Sequence record: DRR723986_20466
Reading direction: 5' to 3' (one strand)
DNA length: 32,464 nt
Part shown: in pieces, positions 12,507-29,881 of the stretch
Layout: every line of letters begins with the position of its first letter
Position numbering within the stretch: position 1 is the stretch's first letter
The notes under the pieces: generated by a model
Told to the model about the DNA's origin: nothing
Database searches by the model: none
What the model saw: the letters and a program-made list of their open reading frames with translations, nothing else
Position numbers and translations under genes: made by a program

Positions 12507-12579
<73 letters not shown>

Positions 12580-12580
12580 C

Positions 12581-12865: not shown

Positions 12866-13543
12866 TTATTCTTTTATACATCTCAAATAATAGCCTGGCA
12901 ATTCTTGAGAAGGAGAAAAATAGGCAGCATTAGAAGTTGAAACGAAAATTTTAGAGTCCTCTGAAAGATCTGAAATACCCACAGTTATTATATCTCCGGA
13001 CTGTTCTGTGGTAGATGTCCAGAAAGAAGCGATTAGCCCTTTTGATCCAAAATATCCAGCAATGTATCTTTCACCTCCAGGAAGTGCATTAAAGCCACTT
13101 GAATTGGTTCCAGATTTATTAAGCCAGTACTCCGTGCTTTTAAGTTTTTTACCTGCTTCAAATGTGCCTCCATTGAAAATAAACAAGTCATTCCAATCAG
13201 ATATACTAGGGATTTTCCAGTCTTTTGGAGCTAATCCTCTTGGGTCAACTATGGCGAAGTAATTATAGATAAGTCCATAAATCTCTCCATTTTGATCTAA
13301 ATCTTCATAATAAGACCAAGCCGGAATTTGGTTTAAATAAGCATCTTCCCAATCCCCTTGGTTAGTGGCATGGAAGAGAACATCTCCATTTTTGAATTTC
13401 TTTACCTCCAGATTTTTTTTCATCCAAATCTGATTACCTATTTCTATACCATTTTCTGGTATTCCTGAAAGATTTGGATCTTCCGGCTCTTGACAAGAAA
13501 ATAGTAGTAGAAAAATTAAAGTCAATGAAAGTAATTTGGACAT
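12866..13543 (-). CDS. FISUMP (Fibrobacter succinogenes major paralogous) domain lipoprotein
   Basis: Lipobox LLFSC; IGNQIWMKKNL, YGLIYN, LAPKDWKIPS..DW, GTNSSGFNALPGG, FWTST and terminal LRCIKE motifs. Confidence 0.88.
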   Translation of the reverse strand: MSKLLSLTLIFLLLFSCQEPEDPNLSGIPENGIEIGNQIWMKKNLEVKKFKNGDVLFHATNQGDWEDAYLNQIPAWSYYEDLDQNGEIYGLIYNYFAIVDPRGLAPKDWKIPSISDWNDLFIFNGGTFEAGKKLKSTEYWLNKSGTNSSGFNALPGGERYIAGYFGSKGLIASFWTSTTEQSGDIITVGISDLSEDSKIFVSTSNAAYFSPSQELPGYYLRCIKE

Positions 13544-13926
13544 CAGCAAAGATTAGGTAGTCAAACGTTCTTATTTAAACGATTTTGAATTGATTCATTT
13601 TCCTTTTTTCTAAACAATTAAAGCTTTTATTATTTAGGTTAACATCTTTTTAAACTAGTCAAAAAATGTATTCAGGAAATACTCAGCAAGAATCTCTGGA
13701 TTCAATTCTGTTTCTTGTAGTTAGATTTTTTGCCTAGTAGATTTTTGCTATAAAGGGCAAACTTTAAGTATAGATAAGATACCGAATATTCTTGTAATAC
13801 CTTAATTGCTAATGTGTTATTGGACTTACTTTTATAATATTAGAAGAAATCGAAGTATAAATTCAAATTCACAGGTAATGTTTTCAGTATATTGAATGAT
13901 TAAAACCTAAAACCACACAATTGCGC

Positions 13927-14313
13927 ATGAAATCAACTAAACTCGTATTGGCAAGCATAATGTTTATGCTATCGCTAAGCTTTGTAATTGCAGCTTCCAT
14001 TTCTTCTCCTGAATATTTTGAAGGCAAATGGAATGTATTAATAAAAGGAACTCCTGAAGGAGATGCTGTAATCCCTATTCGATTTGAGACAATTGATGGG
14101 AAAACCACTGGTTATTTCTTTGAAGAAGGAGCCACTGAAGAGAAAAAAATGACCTCCGCTTCAATTAATGGAGATGTTATTAATACTGCCTTTACTATTA
14201 GCGGCTATGATGTTACTTTATTTTTAAAAAAAGTAGACGCTGACTATGCTAAAGGAGATCTTTTGGGGATGTTTGATGCTGAAGGAACAAGAGTGAAAGA
14301 AGAAAGTAGGTAA
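13927..14313 (+). CDS. Hypothetical exported protein
   Basis: Signal peptide followed by a beta-strand-rich domain (FEGKWNVLIKGTPEGD); a terminator follows. Confidence 0.75.
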   Translation: MKSTKLVLASIMFMLSLSFVIAASISSPEYFEGKWNVLIKGTPEGDAVIPIRFETIDGKTTGYFFEEGATEEKKMTSASINGDVINTAFTISGYDVTLFLKKVDADYAKGDLLGMFDAEGTRVKEESR

Positions 14314-15581: not shown

Positions 15582-16262
15582 CTAACCTCGATCAAAATGC
15601 CCCATTACCTCATCTATAAAGGACAGACTAATCGGAAAAGATTGACCTTCTAGGATCAACTGATGTCGTTCAGCTTTATCTACCAATTCAGAGTTGACGA
15701 TGTAAGAGCGATGTGTACGAATAAAAAAAGAGGGGAGTTCCTTCTCTATTTCAGCTAATGTGATCCTGCTGATTAGCTTTTCAGTTCTCAGGTGAAAGGT
15801 CACATAATTACCAGTAGCTTCGCAGCAGAACAGGTCTTTGAACTTTACTTTGATTTGACCTTCTGAGGTTTTAATATAGATAAACTGCTGCCTATTTCCG
15901 GGTTGTAATTGTTGCCATTCCTGAGCCTTTTGGCAGGCTTTAAGAAATCTAACTAAGCTAAATGGTTTCAATAAATAGTCGATTGCATCTAACTCAAAGC
16001 CTTGCACGGCATAGTCTGAATAGGCTGTAGTGAAGATCACCTGTGTTTCCTTCGGTAAAAGTGCAGCTAATTCCACTCCTGAAATATCAGGCATATTGAT
16101 GTCTAAGAAAATCAAGTCTACAGAATTGGCTTTTATATATTCTAAACCTTCTACAGCATCGGTAAAAGTGGTACTAAGTTCCAAAAATGGAACTTTGGAA
16201 GCATGAGATTTTATTACTTCCAATGCCATGGATTCGTCGTCAATTGCTATTGCTCTAATCAT
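15582..16262 (-). CDS. LytTR family response regulator
   Basis: Receiver domain (IDDE, FLDINMP, FTTAY, DYLLKP) plus LytTR domain (FIRTHRSYIVN). Confidence 0.95.
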   Translation of the reverse strand: MIRAIAIDDESMALEVIKSHASKVPFLELSTTFTDAVEGLEYIKANSVDLIFLDINMPDISGVELAALLPKETQVIFTTAYSDYAVQGFELDAIDYLLKPFSLVRFLKACQKAQEWQQLQPGNRQQFIYIKTSEGQIKVKFKDLFCCEATGNYVTFHLRTEKLISRITLAEIEKELPSFFIRTHRSYIVNSELVDKAERHQLILEGQSFPISLSFIDEVMGHFDRG

Positions 16263-16263
16263 A

Positions 16264-17667
16264 TCAACTTAGTTGTACAGAAAAGTGTACAAAGTGCTCT
16301 GTATCGTTTGCTACGATGGTTAAGTTATGCTTTTGTGGGTAAAAATGGGCCAGCCTGCTCTTGACATTTTCTAACCCTATCCCTGATTCGTCCCGTGGAT
16401 CTTCAGTTAGTTTTTTGGGATGAATACTATTGACCACATCAAGATGCACAGAGCCCTGCAGACATCTTAGATTGATCTTGATCCAAGATTTGCTTTTCGT
16501 GCTAATTCCATGTTTGAACGCATTCTCCACATAAGGAATCAAAAGCATGGGAGCAATGCTGCCTTCACAGATATCGTCTGACAATTTAATCTCCACATCC
16601 AAATTAGATTCGTTTTTGAAACGTAACATCTGTAGATCAAGGTAATTTCTCAAGTAATCTATTTCCCTTGTCAGAGGAATTTTATCCATCTGATTTTCAT
16701 GAAGCATAAAGCGCATCATATCACCCAGTTTCTGTATACCGTCAGACGTTTTCTCCGCATTTTCCATCAATGCGGATCCGTAAAGTGTATTTAAGGCGTT
16801 GAAAAGAAAATGTGGATTGATCTGAGATCTAAGAAAACTGAGATTGGCAGTGCTTTGATTGACTTGTACGGAAAGTGTGTCAATTTTTCCTCTATAATCA
16901 TCATACTTACTGAATACTATATTGGAAAGTGGAAATACAATTAAAATCAATGCAGCGATCATTCCAACCCCAAGAAGGATAATTTCTGGGACATTGTTCT
17001 CCGCAGCTATAATTACAAATATCAGGAAAATCAGGATCAACAGACCCCACAAGAACCAACGATAAGCTTTGATATTACCTTTTAATTTATTTCTGTAAAG
17101 CAGGTAGTAATTATAAAGTACAAAGAAGGCTATCCCTGGAATTATCAAAAGTAGAATAAACAAAATTGCCTCATTAACGAAAATTTGGGAGACAAATAGG
17201 AATACTCCAAGAAATATAAAAATCATAAATAATCGGATTCCATTATATAGCTGAAAATCCTTAAACATTGGAGGTAAAAACATTTTCCGTAACAGATTAG
17301 CAATCACCAAATAAACTGAGTACAGCAGAATCACACTTAGATAGAAACGAAAAAAACGTTCGGCACCCAAATTATTTATTGCTGCACATGTGCCAGTTAA
17401 CGCACCGGTAATAAGCATGGTAAGCAGGGAGAAAAGAATCAGATGTAAAACATTTTTATCTTTTAGGTACTTAGGAATTATAATTAGATGCATTACATAA
17501 AAACCAGCATATAGCACTATTGGTAGTACAACTATCCCAAAGAATTGTGCTATTGGCTCTCTATGGGTTGACATCGCAAAAACGATATTCGTCAACACTA
17601 TTATCAAAAAAACGAAGGTGGATATCCACCATTCTACATCTCTAAATACTAATCTTTTTGATTTCAT
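16264..17667 (-). CDS. LytS/YehU-type membrane sensor histidine kinase
   Basis: Multiple N-terminal TM segments; H-box SQINPHFLFNALN, N-box VENAFKHG, G-box SGIGLENV; stop 1 nt before the regulator ATG. Confidence 0.94.
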   Translation of the reverse strand: MKSKRLVFRDVEWWISTFVFLIIVLTNIVFAMSTHREPIAQFFGIVVLPIVLYAGFYVMHLIIIPKYLKDKNVLHLILFSLLTMLITGALTGTCAAINNLGAERFFRFYLSVILLYSVYLVIANLLRKMFLPPMFKDFQLYNGIRLFMIFIFLGVFLFVSQIFVNEAILFILLLIIPGIAFFVLYNYYLLYRNKLKGNIKAYRWFLWGLLILIFLIFVIIAAENNVPEIILLGVGMIAALILIVFPLSNIVFSKYDDYRGKIDTLSVQVNQSTANLSFLRSQINPHFLFNALNTLYGSALMENAEKTSDGIQKLGDMMRFMLHENQMDKIPLTREIDYLRNYLDLQMLRFKNESNLDVEIKLSDDICEGSIAPMLLIPYVENAFKHGISTKSKSWIKINLRCLQGSVHLDVVNSIHPKKLTEDPRDESGIGLENVKSRLAHFYPQKHNLTIVANDTEHFVHFSVQLS

Positions 17668-17693
17668 ATATCACTAATTATAAACATGTTAGA

Positions 17694-17840
17694 TTACCTT
17701 GATTCAATTGGATTTGTCTTAATGTTCAAAGTAACCTTTTCCGAATCCTCCTTCACAGGTCTGCCGTCTGAAAACATCAGCATGATATTGTAAATAAGCG
17801 CTAAAAGGATCAGCAAATAAAAGACTTTCTTGGTGTTCAT
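17694..17840 (-). CDS. Unannotated 48-aa signal-peptide/single-TM micropeptide upstream of the histidine kinase
   Basis: MNTKKVFYLLILLALIYNIMLMFSDGRPVKEDSEKVTLNIKTNPIESR*. A-rich context before the ATG, promoter elements ~25-55 nt upstream, stop 26 nt before the kinase ATG. Confidence 0.6.
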   Translation of the reverse strand: MNTKKVFYLLILLALIYNIMLMFSDGRPVKEDSEKVTLNIKTNPIESR

Positions 17841-17864
17841 TAATTCTCTTCCTAATTGATAAGA

Positions 17865-17930
17865 CAAGAGTAGTGGTACAAAAAAGTCTTTACAAAAGTA
17901 TGTGACGAAATGGGGAGTTTGTGGGATGAA
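17865..17930 (-). promoter_or_regulatory. Promoter with putative LytTR-binding direct repeats
   Basis: On the minus strand TTCATC (17925-17930) and TTCGTC (17904-17909) repeat at 21-bp period, followed by TTTG (17893-17896), a 20-nt spacer and TACTCTTG (17865-17872). Confidence 0.55.
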
Positions 17931-18077: not shown

Positions 18078-19544
18078 CTAGAATGGGTTTTGGAGCAAAT
18101 TAATGTCCCATATACTTGGAAGGACAAAATACACCATCAAGGTTACCAGAATGATAGAGATCACATTCAGCCAAAAACCAGCTTTAACCATATCCTTCAT
18201 TTGCAGATAGCCAGATCCAAAAACAACTGCATTTGGAGGGGTTGCCACAGGTAGCATAAATGCACAGCTTGCAGCTAGCGTTGCTCCAACCATCAATCCA
18301 AAAGGATGTAAATCAAGCTTCACTGCTACTGATGCAAGTATTGGAAGCAACATGGATGCGGTGGCCACGTTTGATGTCACTTCAGTAAGGAAGTTGACAG
18401 AAGCGACGATAATCAGTAGCAAAAGTAAAAAGGAAATACCTTCTATTAACGTAAATCGAGTTCCTATCCATTCTGCCAATCCAGTTTCTTTGAATCCAGC
18501 TGCCAAAGCTAGCCCACCACCGAAAAGGATCAATACCCCCCAAGGAATGCGCTCTGCAGTTTTCCAGTCTAGAATACGTTCACCATCTTTTGAGGAAGGG
18601 ATAATAAATAACGCTATTACACCAATCAACACTATAATTGTATCGTCCAAGCCAGGCAAAAATTGCTGCAATAAGAAAGATCTGCTAATCCAAGCAAAAC
18701 AAACCAAACCGAAAATACTCATTACAATTTTTTCTTCATAGGTGATTTTACCTAAGGCAGTTAGCTGTGTTTTTATAATGCTTTTTCCATCACTCAAACT
18801 AAAACGGGAGGGTAGAGGGTTGGAAAAATTTACCAGATAGTACCAGCATATAAAAAGCATTACTGCAGACAAAGGCAAGCCGAACAACATCCATTCATTA
18901 AAACCAATCTCATATCCATATAGATCAGAAACTACACTCGCTAAAATGATATTAGTTGGCGTTCCAATCAATGTAGCGACTCCTCCGATGGATGCACTAT
19001 AGGCAATTCCAAGCATTATAGCTTTACCGAGATTTTCAGAAATGGCTAGTTTGGATGATCCAAGTTGATCTTTAAACTGATTTACCACAGCCAAGCCAAT
19101 AGGCAACATCATAAGAGAAGTTGCTGAATTGGAGATCCACATCGAAAGGATTCCAGTAGCCAAAATAAAACCCAGCACGATCTTGCGAAGGTCTGTTCCT
19201 ATTAGATTTATAATATTTAAAGCAATCCTGCGGTGTAAGCTCCATTTTTCAATTCCTGTTGCTAATAGAAAACCACCCATATACAGCAGAACTGTGGGGT
19301 GCATGTAGTTTTCAGATACATCAGCGATAGGGAGAATACCTAAAAGAGGCATCAAAATCAAAGGGAGGAATGCGGTCGCTGCAATGGGTAAGGCTTCAGA
19401 AATCCACCAGATCGCCATCCAAGCAGCTAAAGCGAGCATGGATTGAGCAGATTGGTTTAATCCATTGAACTCAACAAAAAAATTGATTCCTATAAATGCT
19501 AATGGCCCAAAGTAAAGCCCTAGTGATTTAAGATTGATCTTCAT
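18078..19544 (-). CDS. SLC13/DASS family sodium:dicarboxylate (or sulfate) symporter
   Basis: Highly hydrophobic; two SNT-like motifs (WISNSAT, VTSNVAT), TLIGTPTN and FMLPVATPPNAVVF. Confidence 0.93.
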   Translation of the reverse strand: MKINLKSLGLYFGPLAFIGINFFVEFNGLNQSAQSMLALAAWMAIWWISEALPIAATAFLPLILMPLLGILPIADVSENYMHPTVLLYMGGFLLATGIEKWSLHRRIALNIINLIGTDLRKIVLGFILATGILSMWISNSATSLMMLPIGLAVVNQFKDQLGSSKLAISENLGKAIMLGIAYSASIGGVATLIGTPTNIILASVVSDLYGYEIGFNEWMLFGLPLSAVMLFICWYYLVNFSNPLPSRFSLSDGKSIIKTQLTALGKITYEEKIVMSIFGLVCFAWISRSFLLQQFLPGLDDTIIVLIGVIALFIIPSSKDGERILDWKTAERIPWGVLILFGGGLALAAGFKETGLAEWIGTRFTLIEGISFLLLLLIIVASVNFLTEVTSNVATASMLLPILASVAVKLDLHPFGLMVGATLAASCAFMLPVATPPNAVVFGSGYLQMKDMVKAGFWLNVISIILVTLMVYFVLPSIWDINLLQNPF

Positions 19545-27835: not shown

Positions 27836-29881
27836 ATGATAGAAGAAAAAGAATCACTCAATTTCATAGAACAACTCATTGCTGACGATCTAGCAGCAGG
27901 CTTTTCTCCGGAGAAACTTCGTTTTCGCTTTCCACCTGAGCCGAATGGGTATTTACATATAGGCCATGCTGCTTCTATTTGCCTGAATTTTGGATTGGGA
28001 GAAATGCATAATGCTCCTGTTAATCTTCGGTTTGATGATACTAATCCAAGTAAGGAAGAACAGGAATATGTAGATGCAATCAAGCGTGATATTCAATGGC
28101 TTGGATTTCAATGGGCTACAGAATGTTATTCTTCAGACTACTTTCAACAGCTATATGACTGGGCGGTTCAACTGATCAAAGAAGGGAAAGCCTATGTGGA
28201 TCAACAGTCTGCAGAAGCTATGGCCGAGCAAAAAGGAACGCCTACAACTCCAGGAGTGGCTGGTCCTTTTCGTGATCGATCAGTTGAGGAAAATCTAAAT
28301 TTATTTGAAAGAATGAAGGCTGGAGAATTTGAGCAAGGTAGTTATGTACTTCGTGCGAAGATTGATATGGCCTCTTCCAATATGTTGATGCGGGACCCTA
28401 TTCTTTATAGGATTGTGAGGAAAGCGCACCATCGTACTGGCACTGAATGGTGTATTTATCCAATGTATGATTGGGCTCACGGTGAGTCTGATTACGTAGA
28501 GCAGATTTCCCACTCTCTTTGTACGTTGGAATTCAAAATGCACAGGGAGCTGTACGACTGGTTCTTGGATCAAATCTATGACCCTACCAAACTGAGACCA
28601 AAGCAGAGAGAATTTGCCCGAAGAAATCTCAGTTATACAGTCATGAGCAAGAGAAAGCTTCTTGAATTGGTTCAAACCAAAACTGTAACCGGATGGGATG
28701 ACCCTCGTATGCCGACTATCTCTGGTCTACGAAGAAGAGGCTATACGCCTGAATCTATCCGTAAATTCTCTGATGTTTCTGGAATTTCCAAGCGTGATTC
28801 TGTAACAGATGTTTCTCTGTTGGAATTTTGCATTCGAGAGGATTTGAATAAAACTGCAACTCGAGTGATGGGGGTTTTAGATCCCGTGAAGTTAGTAATC
28901 ACCAATTATCCAGCTGGGAAAACTGAAATACTTTCCGCTGAAAATAATCCGGAAGATCCAAATTCAGGAACTCATGACTTACCATTTAGTGGTGAATTAT
29001 ATATAGAAAGAGAAGATTTCAAAGAAGAAGCAGGAAGTAAGTTTTTCCGCTTGACTTTGGGAAATGAGGTACGATTGAAAAGTGCCTACATCATCAAAGG
29101 TGAGTCAGTAGTAAAAGATGCTGCGGGCAATATTACTGAGATTCATTGTACTGCTGACTTGGATTCAAGATCTGGATCTGGAACTGAAGCTAGCACGAGA
29201 AAAGTAAAAGGGACGCTTCACTGGGTATCTATACAGCATGCAATAAAAGCGGAAGTTAGAGAATACGATAGACTATTTTTGGACGAAGCTCCAGACAGTC
29301 ATGAGGACAGGAATTTTATGGAATTCGTAAATCCAGACTCTCTCAAGGTAATCAAAGAGGCCTATCTAGAGCCTTTTCTTAAGGATGCAACCCTTGATGA
29401 TAAATTTCAGTTTCAGAGACTTGGTTACTTTACTTTGGATAAGGATTCTTCTTCAGAAAACCTTGTTTTTAATAAAACGGTAGGTTTGAGGGATTCATGG
29501 GCAAAACAGGCTCCGGTAGCTGCTGCACCGCAAAATCAACCCGTAAAGCAGCAGAACCATGGAGGCGGACAGGCTCAAGGGCAGCGCTCTGCTATCAATG
29601 AGATTCAGAAAATCTCAAAGAAATACACGAATCTATCCGGTGATAAGCTTGCCGCAGCTAGAGCAGATATTGCGAAATTGGCTGAGGAAGTGAGCTATGA
29701 AGAATTGGCTCCCCTATTCAACACAGCTGCTAAGAAAGTTGGGACTCGAATAGGAGCAATGATTACATTGGGTGTCCTGTTAGCCAATGGACAGGAGAGA
29801 AATGCTGAAATTGATGCTTTTATAGAAGCCGGCTTGTCAGATGGAAATGAAGAATTGGTTGGAGAAGCGAAGAAAATTTAA
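27836..29881 (+). CDS. glnS: Glutamine--tRNA ligase with C-terminal extension
   Basis: RFPPEPNGYLHIGH, VMSKRK, GWDDPRMPT and FQFQRLGYF motifs; ~120 extra C-terminal residues. Confidence 0.96.
   Translation: MIEEKESLNFIEQLIADDLAAGFSPEKLRFRFPPEPNGYLHIGHAASICLNFGLGEMHNAPVNLRFDDTNPSKEEQEYVDAIKRDIQWLGFQWATECYSSDYFQQLYDWAVQLIKEGKAYVDQQSAEAMAEQKGTPTTPGVAGPFRDRSVEENLNLFERMKAGEFEQGSYVLRAKIDMASSNMLMRDPILYRIVRKAHHRTGTEWCIYPMYDWAHGESDYVEQISHSLCTLEFKMHRELYDWFLDQIYDPTKLRPKQREFARRNLSYTVMSKRKLLELVQTKTVTGWDDPRMPTISGLRRRGYTPESIRKFSDVSGISKRDSVTDVSLLEFCIREDLNKTATRVMGVLDPVKLVITNYPAGKTEILSAENNPEDPNSGTHDLPFSGELYIEREDFKEEAGSKFFRLTLGNEVRLKSAYIIKGESVVKDAAGNITEIHCTADLDSRSGSGTEASTRKVKGTLHWVSIQHAIKAEVREYDRLFLDEAPDSHEDRNFMEFVNPDSLKVIKEAYLEPFLKDATLDDKFQFQRLGYFTLDKDSSSENLVFNKTVGLRDSWAKQAPVAAAPQNQPVKQQNHGGGQAQGQRSAINEIQKISKKYTNLSGDKLAAARADIAKLAEEVSYEELAPLFNTAAKKVGTRIGAMITLGVLLANGQERNAEIDAFIEAGLSDGNEELVGEAKKI

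Follow-up and report, generated by a model that had tools for sequence, protein, structure and literature searches.

The AgrBDCA and ComCDE systems combine a LytTR regulator and phased repeats with a multi-helix kinase and a peptide gene in an autoregulated operon. MgrB, a membrane peptide of 47 amino acids (aa), is induced by its own system and inhibits the kinase PhoQ (PMC2789325), and the 27-aa SamT (YdgU) is a target gene of RstB/RstA for which negative feedback on the kinase has been proposed (PMC13425233). LytTR Regulatory Systems (LRS; HdrRM/BrsRM) are two-gene systems described as non-phosphorelay, with a self-induced inhibitory membrane protein (PMC6193735). Binding sites of LytTR regulators are reported as repeats of 9-11 nucleotides (nt) with a spacer of 11-13 nt, located before the target promoter (PMC4847170). 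Here we describe a locus that shares features with each of these systems, in a stretch of 32,464 nt from sequence record DRR723986_20466 (the window). By sequence it is a three-gene unit comprising a conserved micropeptide, a LytS-type histidine kinase, and a LytTR response regulator. Sequence comparison shows the micropeptide gene and the selection acting on it, its one-faced helix, the promoter boxes, its co-occurrence with one kinase clade, and its independence of position. The best reading, to which we give a probability of about 0.45, is that the micropeptide acts as a feedback brake on the kinase.

The micropeptide gene (17694..17840, minus strand; 48 aa) is followed by the kinase (16264..17667, minus strand; 467 aa), which starts 26 nt past the end of the micropeptide open reading frame (ORF), and by the regulator (15582..16262, minus strand; 226 aa), which begins 1 nt past the kinase end. 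A first-pass annotation of this DNA had put forward the ATG-initiated ORF from 17840 to 17694, with a basic N-terminus, a hydrophobic stretch, and a charged tail, as the first gene of a Bacteroidota operon with the kinase and the LytTR regulator. Gene spacing and Pfam domains agree with this description, the hydrophobic stretch covers residues 6-23, and the operon is probably autoregulated. The ORF tool had placed the start at an upstream in-frame TTG (17867); 45 of the 48 orthologues examined begin at the ATG equivalent to 17840. No terminator was found between the operon genes, and an Rfam search returned one tRNA only. The kinase matches only PF06580 (His_kinase) in Pfam (E 3e-25), with an H-box at residues 283-293 and the phospho-accepting His286. 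The regulator matches PF00072 and PF04397, with acceptor Asp54; it scores far below the cut-offs for BtsR and LytR (best NCBIfam match BtsR, 117 bits, cut-off 246). Named relatives of the micropeptide come from Algoriphagus, Shivajiella, and Aquiflexum (all labelled hypothetical), and also from Cyclobacterium; the host is therefore most likely an Algoriphagus-like member of the Cyclobacteriaceae. The nearest genome (G001; 85% shared words, kinase 100% identical) was used as a stand-in for the genome of the window.

By its domains, the locus is assigned to the LytS/LytTR systems and lies outside the MgrB family, the LRS, and the Agr/Com systems. Like YpdA/YpdB, BtsS/BtsR, and LytS/LytR, it has a PF06580 kinase with an adjacent REC-LytTR regulator, a spacer of ~13 nt, and a very small regulon (PMC4847170); unlike in those systems, the predicted target is a micropeptide (hydrolases in relatives) and not a known transporter. 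The micropeptide resembles MgrB in its size, its single helix (predicted by AlphaFold2 and hydropathy), its predicted induction by the cognate system, and its likely action on the kinase within the membrane. However, Pfam and NCBIfam scans of the micropeptide gave nothing above cut-off, the two periplasmic cysteines of MgrB are not conserved in it, its tail is dispensable, it is usually co-transcribed with the kinase, and that kinase is of the eight-helix LytS type, not PhoQ. The likeness to SamT lies in the minimal one-helix size (24-27 aa versions occur here), in being the system's own target, and in the proposed negative feedback, whereas the kinase and regulator classes and the phylum differ; homology was compared by family scans alone, and the function here is the presumed one. 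With the LRS, the locus shares an autoregulated operon, 21-bp-phased repeats upstream of the promoter's upstream element, and a membrane protein encoded in the operon, but its regulator has a REC domain and a cognate kinase, and its membrane protein is a single helix. All of the features named above for Agr and Com recur here as well; in contrast to those systems, the locus has neither a conserved mature peptide behind a cleavable leader nor a processing or export gene, and its kinase domain is LytS-type.

Substitution patterns identify the 48-codon ORF as a real gene under purifying selection. In the 20-codon core of 19 orthologues, third codon positions were the most variable, and the ratio of nonsynonymous to synonymous differences (pN/pS) was 0.38 (dN/dS 0.16 with the Jukes-Cantor correction); none of 300 column shuffles was as low. 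With 48 orthologues, where synonymous sites are near saturation, pN/pS was 0.49 (0 of 200 shuffles as low). Stops interrupt each of the other five frames in 6 to 19 of the 19 orthologues (18 for the +1 frame). Two of the refuting conditions named in the first-pass annotation, lack of conservation and a 5' stump of a longer gene, were examined and did not hold. A Kozak-like A at -3 was not enriched at the micropeptide starts (15/48 versus 19/46 kinase starts). Weak matches of the micropeptide to ETRAMP and DltX were set aside as generic helix matches, and the best score in an ESM Atlas search (0.82) was under the lead threshold. An origin as a split-off kinase helix was rejected: the kinases of peptide-less orthologues start at the same residue, without an extra helix.

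AlphaFold2 models the micropeptide as one helix (residues 3-24) followed by a disordered tail. Only the predicted helix is conserved, and on one face; the tail is unconserved. The micropeptides are 24-79 aa long, with five residues or fewer beyond the core in 31 of 122 copies. All 122 cores have Ala or Gly at position 14, which was left free in the search pattern. Leu10 is found in 105 of these cores, Ile11 in 101, Tyr17 in 121, and Asn18 in 105; Tyr17 and Asn18 belonged to the search pattern, and their counts are therefore partly circular. The conservation periodicity of the core peaks at 100-110 degrees, and all 48 N-termini examined carry a net positive charge. Together these features fit a predicted membrane helix with a single packing face and, likely, its N-terminus inside. 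A lipoprotein reading was rejected, there being no conserved Cys.

We collected 145 full-length orthologous kinase loci (59 first and 86 later, excluding three partial matches); 87 of the 145 come from one genus and thus are not independent. The canonical micropeptide is present at 123 loci (122 in the operon, one moved), a divergent hydrophobic ORF takes its place at nine, and at seven loci from a genus labelled g95, a divergent small ORF lies elsewhere behind similar boxes. The canonical gene immediately precedes the kinase in 120 of the 123 cases, and it also lies directly before the kinase in four operons that begin with a hydrolase. Micropeptide, kinase, and regulator are conserved across a family of aquatic Bacteroidota. 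Of 82 high-quality genomes in the genus, 80 contain the kinase, and the micropeptide was found in none of five genus members without the kinase (two of the five of high quality). Small-genome (2-3 Mb) members of the genus (G004, G005, G007-G010, G012, and others) gave no kinase match; most of these are less than 90% complete. In 301 genomes of the order, all 11 in-family micropeptide matches lie at the kinase, as do none of the 19 outside matches checked. A micropeptide profile run against 11,557 short ORFs matched only one orthologous locus, and collection scans with the kinase alignment, which used generic patterns, returned mostly distant kinases. In the genomes compared, the micropeptide is found only together with this kinase, and on the tree it looks like an addition of one Cyclobacteriaceae clade.

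The divergent hydrophobic ORFs belong to three lineages (L038, L046, L051, L403, and L415; L444; L454, L455, and L460), in two of which the kinase has Arg or Gln at Trp13. HHalign finds little homology between these ORFs and the micropeptide (probability 3-5%); the case for it depends on position and pattern. At another locus (L021:1257-1500, G031), the micropeptide appears to have decayed recently, and a long leader and consensus boxes remain.

The span given in the first-pass annotation implied direct repeats upstream of the micropeptide, and such repeats are present. The distal box (TTCATCCC; 17923..17930, minus strand) and the proximal box (TTCGTCAC; 17902..17909, minus strand) are predicted LytTR binding sites of 8 bp, 21 bp apart with a 13-nt spacer, a layout in keeping with the reported LytTR sites (PMC4847170, PMC6193735). 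A predicted Bacteroidota primary-sigma promoter follows (17865..17896, minus strand), with a -33 TTTG (17896-17893), 20 nt, and a -7 element TACTCTTG (17872-17865), which has one mismatch to the -7 consensus TANNTTTG; the reported Bacteroidota -33/-7 consensus is TTTG/TANNTTTG (PMC6847099). A sigma-70 promoter scan used a consensus that is wrong for Bacteroidota, and an automated repeat finder missed the 8-bp boxes. Promoters were located by a score favouring the boxes, with the spacing to the TA left free; 62 of the 68 located align without gaps, and the four box cytosines (two in the distal box) and the TA are invariant. Among the 86 later loci, the promoter matrix scored 26-57 in 79, the promoter lies farther upstream in five, and two contigs are truncated. 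The two boxes are likely a site of autoactivation by the LytTR regulator. Among distant loci, 21 of 24 have the same promoter ahead of longer, peptide-less kinases, in Pedobacter, Mucilaginibacter, Rufibacter, Roseivirga, and metagenomes, so the predicted autoregulation is probably older than the micropeptide. Of the 129 operons with a peptide, 128 have C as the third base of the proximal box; of the 14 without, one does. This association amounts to three of four independent events (sign test p 0.25 on four pairs), moved copies of the micropeptide are also without the C, and 17 of 21 distant peptide-less promoters have it, which weakens the notion that the consensus box accompanies the micropeptide.

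The micropeptide is not tied to its place in the operon. In one genome (G135), the kinase operon is without a micropeptide, and a second copy of the promoter precedes a canonical micropeptide gene (profile E 5e-8) on another contig. In two others (G037 and G765), a gene of 1.3-1.4 kb separates the micropeptide from the kinase. Relocation with its own promoter in the first genome and separation by a gene in the other two suggest that the micropeptide likely acts in trans. The conserved boxes precede it both in the operon and after relocation, binding of the regulator being predicted. All seven g95 genomes examined have a conserved single-helix ORF behind paired boxes and away from the kinase, which is possibly a diverged, relocated micropeptide; its HHalign probability is again 3-5%, and homology would rest on position and pattern. 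This g95 ORF has 63-80 aa (L180:1144-1335, minus strand; L192; L483-L487) and in G132 lies upstream of a MOSC-domain gene.

Hydropathy predicts eight membrane helices in the kinase, with short loops and almost no periplasmic domain; the mean predicted local distance difference test (pLDDT) of its AlphaFold2 model is 82.9. The membrane domain has no Pfam match, and a fold search with the kinase matched catalytic domains only. With this modelled architecture the kinase likely senses within the membrane, where a partner would also have to act. Two kinase residues one helix turn apart, Trp13 and Thr17, were first picked as changed in both divergent-peptide lineages. In the enlarged set, Trp13 is kept in all 123 canonical cases and changes three times, each time on a branch with a divergent peptide; one of the three changes came from held-out data and a new lineage (G778). 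Co-change of Trp13 with the micropeptide is a weak lead only. The nearest genome contains 17 candidate relatives of the kinase. A wider kinase subfamily across Bacteroidota (L138-L149, L233-L241, and L311-L325) has the same two-box promoter, often with genes for a serine hydrolase, an ABC-M1 peptidase, or an outer-membrane barrel within or next to the operon; the first periplasmic loop of these kinases is some 30-40 residues longer than in the peptide-linked clade.

Under the feedback-brake reading, the phosphorylated regulator would bind the two boxes and raise transcription of peptide, kinase, and regulator together in a positive loop. The micropeptide would insert with its N-terminus inside and, through its I11-A/G14-Y17/N18-L21 face, pack onto one of the kinase helices, perhaps helix 1, and the signal would be read within the membrane. 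An inhibitory effect of the micropeptide would close a negative feedback loop resembling those of MgrB and SamT. This sign is proposed by analogy with MgrB, SamT, and the LRS membrane proteins, and since a self-activating operon would gain from a co-expressed brake. Other outputs of the loop, where present, would be envelope enzymes (serine hydrolase, S41 peptidase, ABC exporter) and a DUF4407 protein. The MgrB-like membrane modulator, one of two possibilities raised by the first-pass annotation, is the better one, and the effect on the kinase stands as a proposal. A fuller version, in which a new family with a 24-residue minimum is a third LytS/LytTR component that docks on helix 1, sets the loop gain, and co-evolves with the kinase helix and with binding-site strength, we regard as tentative and rather doubtful.

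Several observations count against the brake. No micropeptide was found at six of the 145 orthologous loci that keep the kinase, and most distant peptide-less relatives have a consensus proximal box (17 of 21; seven of ten in a smaller set), so a brake is not required. The Trp13 co-change has a nominal p of 0.012, but with 134 columns examined the Trp13/Thr17 signal is not significant; His416, in the cytoplasmic part, reaches the same score, and change at conserved cytoplasmic positions is also more frequent in the divergent-peptide lineages (75 of 187 changes on 23% of the tree length). Another lineage has a three-residue divergence of the peptide with Trp13 intact. Finally, in the nearest genome the micropeptide is the sole non-regulatory gene behind a full two-box promoter, which suits an output of the system equally.

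That last point introduces the alternative that survives best, although we consider it unlikely: the micropeptide could act on another membrane protein (a transporter, DUF4407, or an envelope enzyme) and not on the kinase. A promoter scan of the nearest genome found only the operon's own promoter significant (E 2e-12; next 0.048). The micropeptide is kept under its own boxes when moved, and 13 of the 14 operons without it have an altered proximal box, as if high induction were dispensable. A DASS transporter gene (18078-19544, minus strand) ends 148 nt upstream of the distal box in the window; among canonical loci, 69 of 123 have such a gene immediately upstream, as against three of the 22 others, within limited flanks and among kin that are not independent. 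However, the DASS gene is upstream of the boxes and not under them, and it is missing from 54 of the 123. A beta-lactamase-family serine hydrolase occurs inside the operon at eight of the 145 loci, in three positions (within limited flanks). The absence of a larger target gene from the operon, claimed at first pass, consequently stands for the genome of the window but not for the family. The micropeptide survives loss of the hydrolase, and it adjoins the kinase, not the promoter or the hydrolase, in nearly all arrangements; the weak co-change with kinase helix 1 also counts against this alternative.

Other candidate targets came from a promoter model run over 24 genomes, with 150 candidates scored per genome and the training promoters matching by construction. 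Further promoter copies lie before an ABC ATPase (G031, L177) and an S41 peptidase (G026) in relatives, and before ABC and M1 peptidase or outer-membrane barrel genes at distant loci. In 10 of 27 genomes, a DUF4407 membrane-protein gene (L197:982-2202, L204-L230) is preceded by a box pair that outscores every shuffle, whereas in the nearest genome (C13 near 38445) and several others it has one box only; it may be a conserved LytTR target of this regulator or a paralogous one. Pattern searches for the regulon in five genomes returned the operon's own promoter and mostly coding noise. Taken together, the candidate outputs would point to envelope upkeep or peptide breakdown.

It is improbable, to a greater degree, that the micropeptide binds and stimulates or stabilises the kinase, as a SafA/UgtL-like protein or a tethered autoinducer, and so makes a self-amplifying switch. 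The anatomy and distribution are the same as expected for a brake, and kinase-activating small proteins exist (PMC12648545). Against this, kinases persist without the micropeptide in six genomes and in distant relatives, and the activators described in the sources available are made under the control of another system, whereas the self-induced MgrB, SamT, and LRS membrane proteins inhibit.

We see very little chance that the micropeptide ORF works in cis as a leader, coupling or attenuating kinase translation. It is the first gene and in many loci lies near or overlaps the kinase start (gap -4 in seven of 46), yet the gap from its stop to the kinase start ranges from -26 to 133 nt, genes intervene or the micropeptide is moved in the three genomes described above, and conservation falls on the helix instead of the 3' end. 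Its place in cis is thus not fixed, and no conserved C-terminal arrest or codon motif marks it as an arrest or attenuator leader. The RNA folds no better than shuffles (z -0.32), and a terminator between the genes was not found.

The other branch of the first-pass proposal, an exported pheromone precursor sensed by the kinase in the manner of AgrD or ComC, fares slightly worse still. Consistent with it would be n and h regions resembling those of a signal peptide, the lenient cleavage site seen in 28 of 48 sequences, the LytTR regulator with phased repeats, and a C39 peptidase elsewhere in four of five genomes. A strict AxA site, however, is found in only three of the 48, no double-glycine leader or conserved cysteine was seen in the micropeptides, and the kinase is of the PF06580 type. 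No exporter gene was found at the locus and no processing or export gene in the window, and AgrB was found in none of five genomes, though no positive control passed the cut-off in that search. Since only the helix is conserved and the tail is nearly absent in a quarter of copies (the 31 of 122 above), an exported Agr/Com-type peptide is argued against. Least credible of all, with a negligible chance, is a non-gene or the stump of a longer gene, a caveat of the first-pass annotation suggested by the absence of the ORF from the protein collection as called from the window DNA and by its variable length, because all 37 matches of the micropeptide profile among 1.84 billion proteins are short (35-83 aa), the core is under purifying selection, and the micropeptide is kept across many genera.

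Elsewhere in the window, an AraC gene converges on the operon from the downstream side. A PAS protein (21680-21126, minus strand) contains GKNCRFLQ, which we take to be the flavin-binding signature of a light-oxygen-voltage (LOV) domain; 12 nt on lies a SpoIIE-type phosphatase ORF (21113-20481, minus strand) that starts mid-domain. These ORFs may represent a single LOV-phosphatase gene interrupted by a frameshift, or they may be naturally separate. A glutaminyl/glutamyl-tRNA synthetase of 681 aa (27836-29881, plus strand) has a C-terminal extension of ~140 aa without a Pfam match. A tRNA-Thr(TGT) (12507-12580, plus strand) is followed, at 12866-14313, by a Fib_succ_major gene and a secreted protein without assignment, and this region is possibly a small insertion site.

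Neither the micropeptide nor the operon was found described in the accessible parts of the open-access literature on LytTR/LytS, Bacteroidetes, and small proteins, and the portion available of a review of small membrane proteins mentions neither LytS nor Bacteroid- (PMC12648545). In the sources consulted, small-protein control has so far been described for the enterobacterial kinases PhoQ, RstB, EnvZ, and PhoR. If the fuller, three-component version were true, the literature searched would contain no earlier example of such a peptide, either for LytS-type kinases or among Bacteroidota. Bacteroidota carry many LytS/LytTR pairs, few of which have a characterised input or output. The locus offers a compact, testable circuit from harmless environmental bacteria, with a defined operator, a 24-residue minimal peptide, and candidate contact residues, along with natural variants in which the micropeptide is moved, divergent, or lost. 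The promoter model provides a way to read the regulon of the whole kinase subfamily across Bacteroidota. If the micropeptide acts on the kinase, small-protein control of sensor kinases would extend to a new kinase class and a new phylum.

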